A stretch of DNA of 64,000 nucleotides from Eledone cirrhosa (taxonomy: Eukaryota), in NCBI GenBank assembly GCA_964016885.1, contig CAXHJY010001100.1:127931-191930 (forward strand), read 5' to 3'. Every line of letters begins with the position of its first letter. Positions within the stretch are counted from its first letter, which is position 1. Under the pieces are notes generated by a model that was not told where the DNA came from, ran no database searches, and saw only the letters and a program-made list of their open reading frames with translations. Below are positions 25,926-47,752 of this stretch, piece by piece. Both the position numbers and the translations under genes were made by a program.

Positions 25926-26100
25926 TTATTCCGGGTTGAATCGGAGGTAACCACAGTAAGTACGGTACTCAATACATTGCAGAGTATAAAAGTTTTAATA
26001 TAGATGAGATTCTACAGGACTAGAACTGTTTCATTCTTTAGAAATCATCAGGATTTCTAAAGAATGAAACAGTTCTAGTCCTGTAGAATCTCATCTATAT
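25926..26100 (-). mobile_element. (TA)n-flanked palindromic pLTR-like element with a hammerhead-like core at the axis
   Basis: Inverted arms at about 25998-26046 and 26052-26100; the minus strand reads CTGATGA-tttctaaagaat-GAAA-cagttcta. Related copies at 25838-25890 and 28275-28379. Confidence 0.55.
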
Positions 26101-26338
26101 ATATATATATATATATATATATATATATATGGGAAGTGATATATTTGATATATCTCATATGAAATGATACAGCCAATTCTGCACACAATACAATGTAGTT
26201 AGCACCCCGAACGTTTAATTAGGAATATACTCAGATATTTCCTAATGTTTGTTGAGTGAGTTGGAATTTGGCCGGAGTATCGCTATTAGCTTTCTCCGTT
26301 TATGTATATATATATATATATATATATATATATATATA

Positions 26339-26815
26339 TACGATATATTAACAAATGGAAACTATATTTATAAAACCATATTTATTTCATTATACATATT
26401 TGAAGGACACCAAGTTAAATTATGGTGTGCTTTCATCAGATAAAATATAATATAGATCAGTTTTATAAATAAATATTGACATACCCTTAAAGAATGCGAC
26501 CATTTCTGTTGGAAGCTCCCGGATAGTGGGGTTATCAATTCACTATCCGGGAGCTTCCAACAGAAATGGTCGCATTCATTAAGGGTATGTCAATATTTAT
26601 TTATAAAACTGATCTATATTATATTTTATCTGATGAAAGCACACCATAATGTAACTTGGTGTCCTTGAAATATGTATAATGAAATAAATATGGTTTTATA
26701 AATATAGTTTCCATTTGTTAATATATCGTATTTTTACTCTAATAATTTGTTGAGTGCTTTATATCAGTTATAAAAATATTTGTTTGTTGTATCCCAACAA
26801 TTTAAATAGAACTTC
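26339..26815 (+). mobile_element. (TA)n-flanked Penelope-like pLTR palindrome (190-bp arms, 12-nt loop) with an extended right arm
   Basis: 26339-26528 is the near-perfect reverse complement of 26541-26730; both arms contain an HHR. Confidence 0.75.
26622..26686 (+). ncRNA. Minimal type-I hammerhead ribozyme, intact core
   Basis: tattttat-CTGATGA-aagcacacca(loop)tggtgtcctt-GAAA-tatgtata-atgaaata; 8-bp stem I; AUA cleavage after 26678. The mirror copy at 26383-26447 (-) has CAAA instead of GAAA. Confidence 0.8.
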
Positions 26816-27027
26816 TACATATATATATATATATATACGACGGTATGCTGCAGTTTCCATCAACCAAATTCAGCTTCAGGCATGGGCTTTAGTAGAAAAC
26901 TTTTTCTTGCCCAATGTGCCACAATATACTGACACGGAATCCCGAAATCATGTATATAGTTGCCAGGCGAAATCGTTAACGAAACAAAGCTGCCTTACAT
27001 TTCTTTAGAGATAATTACTTCTATAAT

Positions 27028-27552
27028 ACTTTTGGCACAAGGCCAGCAATTACCCCAGTGTATTACTGGTACTTTATTTTATCGACCCCCGTAAGGATGA
27101 AAGACAAAGTTAACCTTGTCGGCGGGATTTGAATTCAGAATGGCAAGGGCCGTAACTCTTTGCTTACAAAGCATGGCGTCCGACCCTCTACCGATACTGC
27201 CAATCCACCACCCTATTTATAAAATAATTTGTTTCTACTTTTGGCACAAGGCCAGCAAATTACCCGGTACATTACTGGTACTTTATTTTATCGACCCCCG
27301 TAAGGATGAAAGACAAAGTTAACCTTGTCGGCGGGATTTGAATTCAGAATGGCAAGGGCCGTAACTCTTTGCTTGCAAAGCATGGCGTCCGACCCTCTAC
27401 CGATACTGCCAATCCACCACCCTATTTACAAAATAATTTGTTTCTACTTTTGGCACAAGGCCAGCAAATTACCCGGTACATTCCTGGTACTTTATTTTAT
27501 CGACCCCCGTAAGGATGAAAGGCAAAGTTAACCTCGGCGGGATTTGAACTCA
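27028..27552 (-). mobile_element. Tandem triplication (209-bp period) of a family A SINE
   Basis: Near-identical ORFs at 27116 and 27325 (offset 209). Confidence 0.9.
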
Positions 27553-28274
27553 CCTGAGGATATCATCGTTGATAGAACACAATACCCCAAATATTTATAA
27601 AATCTCTGACAACCACCGTTATATTTCCACTGGATTAATTACGTCAACATTCCTTACCCAACACGCAATCCTATCTCAGTAATTGCGTTGTATTTCGGAC
27701 GCCATTTTCAGCGAATATTTCACTATCTGAGTTGAAAATATCCATAAATTGAACAGGATTGCTTTTAATGCAGCATCCGTCACTCTTTCCTGAAAATTAA
27801 TCGATATTTATTGGTAATTGATACATTCATATATATAATATATATATTAATATTGCCAATTTTATGGGACATATATTTACGGCCACACACGCATGCACAT
27901 ATATATACTGTTCTCACATCTATTTCATATATATATATATATATATATATATATATATATATATACATAAATACATTTACATACATACATACATATATAT
28001 ACATAAATACATTTACATACATATATATATATATATATATATATATATATATATATATATATATATATATATATATATATATATATAAATATATATATAT
28101 ATATATATATTTATATATATATATATATGTATATATATACATATATATATGTATGTATGTAAATGTATTTATGTATATATATATATATATATATATATAT
28201 ATATATATATATATATATATATATATATATATATATATATATATATATATATATGTATATATATACATATATAC

Positions 28275-28379
28275 ATTTAATATAGAAATGGCTTCTACGG
28301 GACTTCCTGATGATTTCTCCTGATGATTTCTCCCGAATGAAACAGTTCTAGTCATGTAGAAGCCATTTCTATATTAAAT
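28275..28379 (+). mobile_element. Short (TA)n-flanked hairpin element with a duplicated CTGATGA core
   Basis: 24-bp inverted arms 28275-28298 and 28356-28379; CTGATGA at 28307 and 28320, GAAA at 28339. Confidence 0.55.
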
Positions 28380-45387: not shown

Positions 45388-45750
45388 TATGTATATATGT
45401 GTGTGTTTGTGTATGTGTATATGTGTGTGTTTGTGTATGTGTATATGTGTGTGTTTGTGTATGTGTATATGTGTGTGTTTGTGTATGTGTATATGTGTGT
45501 GCTTGTGTATGTGTATATGTGTGTGCTTGTGTATGTGTATATGTGTGTGCTTGTGTATATGTATAGATGCGTGCTTGTGTATGTGTATATGTGTGTGCTT
45601 GTGTATATGTGTGTGCTTGTGTATGTGTATATGTGTGTGCTTTTGTATGTGTATATGTGTGTGCTTGTGTATGTGTATATGTGTGTGCTTGTGTATGTGT
45701 ATATGTGTGTGCTTGTGTATGTGTGTATGCTTGTATATGTGTGTGCTTGT
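45388..45750. repeat. 24-bp TG-rich minisatellite
   Basis: gtgtatgtgtatatgtgtgtgctt repeats. Confidence 0.9.
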
Positions 45751-45897
45751 GTCTGTGCATATACATACATTTATAAGTATGAGTATGTAAATATAAATGT
45801 GCAAACACAGACACACTTACAAAAATACACTCAGACATACATTCACACAAACACACACATACAACACCTCGTGCCTATATAAGGAACCATTATTTAC

Positions 45898-46117
45898 CGA
45901 AGGCGGTGGATTGGCAGTATCGGTAGAGGGTCGGACGCCATGCTTTGACGCATAGAGTTACGGCCCTTGCCATTCTGAGTTCAAATCCCGCCGATTTGCC
46001 TTTCATCCTTACGGGGTCGATAAAATAAAGTACCAGTAATGCACTGAGGGACGATTTAATCGACTGCCCCCCCCCCGCCCAAATTGCTGGCCTTGTGCCT
46101 AAAGTAGAAACAATTAT
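45898..46117 (+). mobile_element. Full-length family A SINE (long variant)
   Basis: A box TGGCAGTATCGG, B box GAGTTCAAATCC, body gcctttcatccttacggggtcgataaaataaagtaccag, ATT tail. Confidence 0.9.
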
Positions 46118-46354
46118 TGACCATAACTTCGTGTCAACCATACCTTTTGAGTGAAACTGTTTGGAGCACATCGGATAGACTGTACCTGTAATTAAAGAGG
46201 TCCAACCATGTCACATACTGTGTCATACTGATTTACGTTAAGGATACACGTTATTTGCAGAATGCTCAGACACTTGCACGTTAATTTCACGAGCCTGCTG
46301 TTATGTTGAACAAACAACTAGACCATTGATCGTCGAACAATACGGAGGTCATTA

Positions 46355-46977
46355 AGTAGTATAACTCAGTATTAGTAGTACAACTCAGTATTACTAGTAT
46401 AACTCAGTATTAGTAGTACAACTCAGTATTACTAGTATAACTCAGAATTACTAGTACAACTCAGTATTACTAGTATAACTCAGTATTAGTAGTACAACTC
46501 AGTATTACTAGTATAACTCAGTATTACTAGTACAACTCAGTATTACTAGTATAACTCAGAATTACTAGTACAACTCAGTATTACTAGTATAACTCAGAAT
46601 TACTAGTACAACTCAGTATTACTAGTATAACTCAGAATTACTAGTACAACTCAGTATTACTAGTATAACTCAGAATTACTAGTACAACTCAGTATTACTA
46701 GTATAACTCAGAATTACTAGTACAACTCAGTATTACTAGTATAACTCAGAATTACTAGTACAACTCAGTATTACTAGTATAACTCAGAATTACTAGTATA
46801 ACTCAGTATTACTAGTATAAATCAGAATTACTAGTACAACTCAGTATTACTAGTATAACTCAGAATTACTAGTACAACTCAGTATTACTAGTATAACTCA
46901 GAATTACTAGTACAACTCAGTATTACTAGTATAACTCAGTATTAGTAGTATAACTCATTATTGGTAGTATAACTCAG
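46355..46977. repeat. 19-bp minisatellite (AACTCAGTATTACTAGTAT/C), about 32 units with alternating variants
   Basis: Directly visible. Confidence 0.95.
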
Positions 46978-47316
46978 AGCAAATCGTATTCCTCGCTGGA
47001 GTATCATCGTTATTAGGCCTCACACTTATACAACGAAAGTAACTTTTCTCTCGTTCTCGTAGTCGTCTGCTCTTATCTTCTTCTTAGTAACTACAAATGT
47101 CAGTTAAGTAAATGACAATTGGCTGTTGCTACTAAATCACATATAACTCTTTCTACACCAGTGATGAATGACTTTCAATCAGCAGACGACACATAATATC
47201 GTCTGTTTTGGTTTCAACGTTAATCGCATCTGTCAATTGACACGAAATTTGGACATCAATACGAGATAAACACACAGAAGAAGAATGCGTGTATGTGTTT
47301 ATATATATATATATAT

Positions 47317-47752
47317 AACGAAGGAAATGTGGTAAGGAACCAGGTGGACCATAACGCACCAAAGTACTCAATACTTGAGGTAGTAGAGTGGGTAATAGGA
47401 ACCAGTAAGACCCCGACAGCTGAGCTCAAGCCGTTTCGACGGCTAATTCTGGACAGTGTCCAGAATTAGCCGTCGAAACGGCTTGAGCTCAGCTGTCGGG
47501 GTCTTACTGGTTCCTATATATATATATATATATATATATATATATATATATAGGAAAAGAGACAGGACTCCGACGGCTGAGCTCCGGCCGTTTCGACAGC
47601 TAGATCCGAACAGTTAGTATCTAGCTGTCGAAACGGCTGGAGATCAGCCGTCGGGGTCCTGACTCTTTTCCTATTACCCACTCTACTACCCTAAGTATCG
47701 AGTACTCTGGTGCGTTATGGTCCACCTGGTATCTTACTACACCTTCTTTCTT
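47317..47752. mobile_element. Two adjacent copies of a (TA)n-embedded palindromic element (family P); further copies at 25504-25600, 32994-33051, 48273-48477, 59144-59306, 62598-62655, 62894-63022
   Basis: Perfect 123-bp palindrome 47395-47517 and imperfect palindrome 47550-47674, each with one extended arm; contains GAAACGGC-ttgagctca-GC(C/T)GTC. Confidence 0.8.

Follow-up and report, generated by a model that had tools for sequence, protein, structure and literature searches.

We analysed 64,000 nucleotides of the Eledone cirrhosa genome (assembly GCA_964016885.1, contig CAXHJY010001100.1, positions 127,931 to 191,930 of the forward strand), referred to below as the window. It is AT-rich repeat DNA in a 3.0 Gb genome, and no sound protein gene is evident in its 64 kb. 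Short head-to-head palindromic inserts flanked by (TA)n occur in it. Judged by their sequence, these inserts are truncated pseudo-long terminal repeats (pLTRs) of Hydra-clade Penelope-like elements (PLEs), and they carry a small bulged RNA hairpin. This hairpin, H1, is the first of two per element, the second being termed H2. The H1 copies and the hammerhead ribozymes that accompany them in the window are the following.

8149..8183, minus strand: degenerate H1 with damaged 5' arm, insert 8033-8299 (covariance-model E 0.45)
8218-8263, plus strand: hammerhead in the mirror arm of insert 8033-8299
18493..18516, plus strand: H1 variant with 3' end GAGCTA
25571..25596, plus strand: H1 hairpin of family A, disrupted tail
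25965..25985, minus strand: H1 bulged hairpin, palindromic insert 25924-26095
26630..26678, plus strand: minimal type I hammerhead core, insert 26341-26819
26736..26757, plus strand: H1 hairpin, same insert; the mirror arm joins (TA)n 7 nt before the hairpin
33148..33170, plus strand: H1 hairpin, insert 33067-33224
42497..42519, plus strand: H1 hairpin, insert 42330-42565
42718..42744, plus strand: H1 variant with compensatory lower stem GTTC/GAAC, family G single long arm 42594-42829
42956..42982, minus strand: H1 hairpin of family B, insert 42900-43267 (autonomous Hydra-type open reading frame in L153-L156)
43033..43087, minus strand: hammerhead in the long arm of the same family B insert
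43170..43224, plus strand: hammerhead in the mirror (short) arm of the same insert
47364..47389, minus strand: H1 hairpin of family A, insert 47318-47514
47680..47705, plus strand: H1 hairpin of a family A subfamily, insert 47553-47751
48321..48346, minus strand: H1 hairpin of family A with its last base changed, insert 48274-48482
55335..55364, plus strand: H1 hairpin of a further family
59191..59216, minus strand: H1 hairpin of family A, insert 59145-59304
62952..62977, plus strand: H1 hairpin of a family A subfamily, single-arm insert 62896-63021

The original prediction described one hairpin at seven sites. Six of its motifs were found at the positions and on the strands it gave (6/6). The seventh site, placed at about 18492, is present and starts at 18493, but its 3' end reads GAGCTA and not GAGYRC. 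Another 8 copies or variants are present in the window. The predicted hairpin is real; what had been missed is the 2-nt bulge, the covarying upper stem and the existence of a second hairpin. From the end of the hairpin to (TA)n we measured 41-62 nt for the six motifs, in agreement with the 40-60 nt proposed, and the mirror arm does end short of the hairpin in all 9 palindromic window inserts. In these, (TA)n starts about 4-17 nt short of the hairpin, mostly 7-8 nt (n = 9, by eye). A location downstream of the hammerhead holds for the family, but several copies are cut inside the hammerhead; among motif-bearing inserts, complete cores were found by script only at 8218, 26630, 43033 and 43170. 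A chance test gave 7 matches of the A-T type (0.37 expected) and 4 of the G-C type (0.09 expected), and none of 100 shuffled windows reached either observed count. A covariance model built only from metagenome H1s found 7/7 of the originally listed sites (E 5.5e-08 to 0.057).

The carrier families had been regarded as otherwise unrelated. This could not be maintained, as the inserts, judged by sequence, come from Hydra-clade PLEs and the families are thus diverged sisters. In the relevant passages of PMC8557442, the clade is defined by a reverse transcriptase (RT), a C-terminal GIY-YIG endonuclease (EN), RWK-like and DKT motifs, CxCX5C, CxxC and CxH, with no CCHH. The link to an open reading frame (ORF) was made for window families A and B. 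Family B (window 42900-43267; 1,452 exact matches of a 38-mer in the genome) leads back to an intact single ORF with RT and C-terminal GIY-YIG EN, which contains RRLRW, HSDKT, CxCX5C, CxxC and CxH and lacks CCHH. The CxCX5C linker, the CxxC and CxH of the EN and the lack of CCHH were read by eye in the translations of family B and L158. Copies of family A lead to the same Hydra ORF type, with ORF pieces in L158 and the ORF start in L343; RRLRW or RRMRW is present in families A, L347 and L363. A pLTR hammerhead and insertion into (TA)n, also characteristic of the clade, were found, the core of family A being a U3-A8 variant with a long stem II (by eye). Since families A and B show the ORF features of the clade, the window copies would be 5'-truncated pLTRs. 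A Hydra-type EN piece matched the Pfam GIY-YIG family weakly (E 0.0026, below cutoff), and the best fold matches of a Hydra protein model were TERTs.

The hairpin is composed of RCUC, a freely covarying upper stem of 3-6 bp, a loop, a 2-nt U-H bulge on the 3' side and GAGY-RC. Its pairing was assessed in copies from 1.4 Mb of this genome, grouped into 25 families and found with a search pattern consisting of the lower stem and the bulge, the upper stem being excluded; about three singletons, possibly chance or damaged copies, were kept in. The first three upper-stem pairs are kept in 25/25, 23/25 and 19/25 families, so that 67 of 75 cells are paired, as compared with 47.3 after shuffling (0 of 100,000 shuffles as high). 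In 35 protein-selected H1s from metagenomes, 92% of 255 cells are paired (19-59% in slid controls), with both-sided changes in 38 cells (0 of 500 shuffles); the shuffles ignore the relatedness of the sequences. By eye, both-sided swaps are spread over different branches of the protein tree (for example L259/L320, L249/L292 and L289/L299); the tree came from a quick search and holds Hydra-type proteins only, with no reference proteins of other clades. In the H1 upper stem G.U pairs outnumber A.C pairs by 9 to 1, which favours the sense strand as the folded one. A C-G to U-A swap in the lower stem was found in family G and in L242. As for the proposed exchange of A-T and G-C at the outer pair, both types occur in this genome: without a pairing filter, 139 distinct copies comprised 109 A-T, 17 G-C, 4 G-T and 9 unpaired or other, and the 17 families comprised 8 A-T, 5 G-C, 1 G-T and 3 other. 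The metagenome H1s are G-C in 32/35, so the exchange is mainly a trait of this genome. Folded one by one, H1 sequences and their flanks give weak structures (-2 to -12 kcal/mol), which are not always this fold. Very long loops of 30-70 nt, with the lower stem and the bulge kept, were seen in L083:3369-3560, L347, L363 and L315.

The leader of intact elements has the order hammerhead, H1, H2, ATG; copies end at two points with a TA-like match of 1-5 nt, and two-arm inserts pair one long arm with one short. H2 is seen in read-through tandem copies, 3' of the long end and 5' of the ATG. Family A copies have two fixed end points, 80 nt apart, and family B likewise has two. In mirror (short) arms, (TA)n begins 7-8 nt before H1 (the mode in 7 families), and in long arms it begins 6-7 nt before H2, as observed in 4 families in which a Hydra-type ORF starts after H2. 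At the eight junctions examined, the match between element and (TA)n is followed by the hairpin 3-6 nt away. The H1-to-H2 tail is about 57-116 nt long. Arms were counted in 714 kb that had not been chosen for the motif, made up of the window, the contig on which it lies and stretches sampled evenly. In this set, 69 of 89 motif matches sit 40-79 nt before a TA run. Same-family two-arm inserts were long+short in 38 cases, short+short in 4 and long+long in 0 (p 2e-08), a count that leaves out about a hundred unclassified ends (low-complexity library rows) and the single-arm inserts (39 long, 20 short). The original prediction had named a lack of covariation or of positional enrichment in a larger copy set as evidence against itself; both persist in a far larger set. 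An origin of inserts from two RNAs, suggested by arm pairs of different families (L001, L009, L015, L020), was rejected because those loci were enriched by the search pattern, and no two hairpin families formed a clean long+short pair in the 714 kb. Near position 1500 of the four loci, the inverted arm of one hammerhead family is joined to a family A arm. An internally deleted family A unit of 257 nt, repeated about 2.5 times in one insert (L349:1330-2010), has kept both hairpins and only half of the hammerhead. At G000:C1:81256625-81259215, a 63-nt tandem array is derived from a family A segment with H1. Runs of (CT)n were found at junctions where the element ends in CTCT (L058, L060 and L077, Neptune-like short; L384 and L398, family G long), as though the RT had stuttered at the start site.

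The hairpin is real and clade-wide. A metagenome scan with the Hydra protein alignment provided 79 loci, from the best 80 of 456 relatives, belonging to 64 families. The strict motif occurs on the sense strand of 45/79 protein-selected loci, a few of these being chance matches in coding regions, and on the antisense strand of 1/79. H1 or H2 was labelled in 50/79 loci and 38/64 families, with H1 in 37 families, H2 in 29 and a median H1-H2 spacing of 64 nt over 24. In these loci from other animals, TA dinucleotides are most frequent at -6 to -8 relative to each hairpin (41/102 vs 56/510, p 3e-11; 30/87 vs 43/435, p 5e-08), and loci in which the leader is intact and a (TA)n junction is present end there (by eye, e.g. 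L254, L297, L299 and L304). Of six published Hydra consensus sequences inspected by eye, three have the exact motif (Hydra-2_Amil, Hydra-2_Ajap and, twice, Hydra-1_Ajap), Hydra-1_Crog has a variant, and Hydra-1_Amil and Hydra-1_Obim have no clear motif. The metagenome-H1 covariance model finds both hairpins of families A, B, L347 and G (weakest E 0.48). In the whole genome, the pattern matched 72,442 times on the plus strand, as compared with 1,313 for the reversed control. No relative was found among viral contigs.

Family G, represented in the window by 42594-42829, lacks an ORF. It is a tandem hammerhead unit of about 550 nt (557- and 530-nt units) with a longest stop-free frame of 53 aa, one type I hammerhead per unit (by eye) and 5,334 exact pattern matches in the genome. 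With tandem non-coding units and predicted type I hammerheads it corresponds to the definition of a non-LTR retrozyme. Family G keeps both hairpins: H1 has the lower stem GTTC/GAAC, and H2 follows after about 116 nt. Its ends at 30 loci were 12 short, 12 long, 4 internal and 2 unclear, and its two-arm inserts were long+short in 5/5 cases. As an ORF-less family keeps the hairpins and the end rule, the hairpins would serve mobilisation and not translation. We infer that a Hydra protein moves family G.

Other PLEs and RNA families were searched for the hairpin. No covariance-model match was found in the tails beside 12 hammerheads of a Neptune-like family or at 5 junctions of the non-Hydra family D. 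In the Naiad and Chlamys consensus files, 11 matches of three 8-mers were seen, none in such a hairpin (by eye); this search misses line-break-spanning and A-T variants. Among the best 150 of 249 Rfam 15 matches, all are below the gathering score, none is centred on the hairpin, and they represent microRNA models on repeats or palindromes. The first ORF followed (L017 type, Neptune-like, two ORFs) turned out to belong to another clade without the motif. A coding constraint on the hairpin was ruled out, as it lies 5' of the ATG and its loop lengths are not in frame. A Pol III B-box was also discarded: the common TT-bulge form is without the consensus. The Neptune-like two-ORF PLE at L073:5936-6150 (G000:C4; 427 aa + 777 aa) has a U3-A8 hammerhead, a ~40-nt tail and a TAACCTWCG-like word after both end points, perhaps its own twin signal. 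Family D (L321, L329 and L339 around 1510; not related to the window) has a 60-nt tail, AATATCG after both end points and an ORF with an asparagine/threonine-rich insert, not of the Hydra type.

It is likely, on the arrangement of these sequences, that each hairpin docks one RT and that (TA)-primed internal initiation is set just 5' of it. In this scheme the element protein would bind both hairpins and cut (TA)n on both strands, and each free 3' end would anneal to U-A-U just 5' of a hairpin. Two cDNAs would be copied from the same-sense RNA, starting at H1 and H2; the H2-started cDNA would copy H1 and give the long arm, and the H1-started cDNA would omit H1 and give the mirror arm. Joined head to head, they would form the palindromic insert. 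With starts at H1 and H2, the PLE "tail" would be the H1-to-H2 interval. According to the parts of PMC11167929 concerned, the purified anole PLE protein cuts and extends both strands, and initiation is internal, at two sites bounding the tail, with RNA 3' of the starts needed. Of the shared cis-signal originally proposed, 3'-end definition is supported, and recognition by the RT or endonuclease is what we infer.

Several observations weigh against this reading. Besides the relatedness ignored by the shuffles, the metagenome H1 lower stem is almost invariant in the 35 sequences, so it may be read as sequence and not as a helix. The H2 upper stem is weak past the first pair in metagenomes (57/87 vs 50.4, p 0.036), with 4 G.U and 6 A.C pairs. 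One RNA with two primers leaves the 4 short+short and 59 single-arm inserts unexplained, and the short ends of one window family are scattered (-7, -17, +3). No hairpin is labelled in 29/79 metagenome loci, mostly short contigs, and L273 has a full leader with degenerate hairpin forms at best. The Neptune-like family and family D have the same two-end geometry without the hairpin. Finally, the ends described here show TA microhomology, whereas the anole starts are reportedly non-homologous to the target (passages of PMC11167929).

Alternatively, the hairpins could cause the RNA to be cleaved, or to terminate, a few bases 5' of themselves, the two resulting RNA 3' ends being copied as in LINE/R2. 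We consider this unlikely. The same end positions and the sense-strand fold fit it, but it predicts long+short pairing, seen in 38/42 inserts, only with joint loading of RNAs of the two lengths, both hairpins stay intact in tandem inserts that read through them, and the anole PLE, as far as the passages of PMC11167929 go, initiates internally on uncut RNA. It is also improbable that the hairpins act in DNA, as single-stranded cDNA or an extruded duplex, where they would be endonuclease sites resolving an over-long or self-primed intermediate at two positions. Passages of PMC8557442 ascribe the tail to endonuclease-mediated resolution, a Drosophila endonuclease needed the tail on plasmids (as cited in part of PMC11167929), self-priming on an antisense template was proposed in PMC3846280, and G.T pairs form in DNA too. 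However, the 9:1 excess of G.U over A.C points to the sense strand and not to cDNA or antisense, variable loop length and a one-sided bulge are ill-suited to a duplex site, and the ends abut (TA)n with TA microhomology, as priming predicts. That the hairpins help to translate or transcribe the ORF, as a leader structure or an internal promoter, with ends adjoining only via TA-rich patches, is very improbable: in metagenome loci the start of H2 is about 35-70 nt upstream of the ATG, but ORF-less family G retains both hairpins and both end points, and in this genome H2-to-ATG varies from 14 to 63 nt while the hairpin-to-end distance is fixed. Neutral shared ancestry or chance, to which the restriction of all carriers to one clade would point, is largely refuted by compensatory changes and by retention of the motif in coral, sea cucumber and 38 metagenome families, whose flanks and loops are unalignable and whose proteins are about 45% identical.

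The elements, their hammerheads, the tail and two-site initiation are already known. The inverted copy and the optional tail of PLE pLTRs are described in passages of PMC8557442 and PMC3846280. Poseidon_Ac resembles the elements studied here, according to parts of PMC11167929, in its two RT starts downstream of the hammerhead with the tail between them, an AT-rich target, extension of both strands and a requirement for RNA 3' of the starts. In Poseidon_Ac, however, the region is part of the ORF, with a tail of 30-40 nt, and those parts define no conserved hairpin that is repeated; here the region is non-coding, about 57-116 nt long, with two bulged hairpins and TA microhomology. No RCUC/GAGY hairpin was seen by eye in 96 letters from Fig. 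S1 of PMC11167929. The Hydra clade, as presented in passages of PMC8557442, shares with our elements the protein motifs, the C-terminal GIY-YIG, hammerheads, (TA)n targets, inverted 5'-truncated copies and the optional tail. These passages do not mention a tail stem or hairpin, and the motif is present but unremarked in the accompanying consensus file. Animal non-LTR retrozymes (PMC7229834; bioRxiv 10.64898/2026.07.22.740005) are, in the portions concerned, ORF-less tandem type I hammerhead units like family G and are proposed to use PLE machinery; those portions name no hairpin or cis-signal, whereas family G has both hairpins and the end rule. Passages of PMC2377424 contain nothing on the tail. 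No description of the hairpin pair was found in searches of the open-access literature, which did not extend to Repbase reports, figures or bioRxiv supplements, and the pair is probably an undescribed cis-RNA element of a known retroelement clade. How PLE tails and head-to-head repeats arise is an open question according to passages of PMC8557442 and PMC11167929.

A duplicated conserved RNA element at a fixed distance from both starts makes the question of the tail directly testable by mutation. The twin hairpins are a candidate cis-signal for retrozyme mobilisation, and the hairpin can serve as a marker of Hydra-clade copies that lack an ORF. The finding also bears on template choice in the sister lineage of telomerase. 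Telomerase RNA elements position TERT on its template. By analogy, an RT of the TERT/PLE lineage would be positioned here by a stem-loop lying next to a short patch for alignment; unlike in telomerase, there are two sites per RNA and copying runs for kilobases. In a bolder version, to which we give slightly less than an even chance, this would be a two-address RNA: the bulged hairpin pair would seat an RT dimer, UAU would align the (TA)n primer telomerase-style, and the RNA would be copied twice into both break ends. If so, it would account in general for the PLE tail and the inverted structure, and ORF-less retrozymes and any cargo RNA would be mobilised through the twin hairpins as a portable signal.

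The window also contains other repeats. Palindromic inserts without the hairpin are located at 31854-32233, 18924-19385, 50169-50952, 59438-59840, 62470-62820 (with hammerhead cores at 62485 and 62782) and 31618-31738. Minisatellites occupy 13484-14549 (83 nt), 50952-52194 (138 nt), 38434-38961 (105 nt) and 46357-46978 (38 nt), and LINE-type RT fragments lie near 38087-38500 and 39340-39685. An abundant repeat, SINE-like by impression only, is present as copies or tandem pieces at 20381-20616, 25040-25170, 27027-27552 and 37447-37791.

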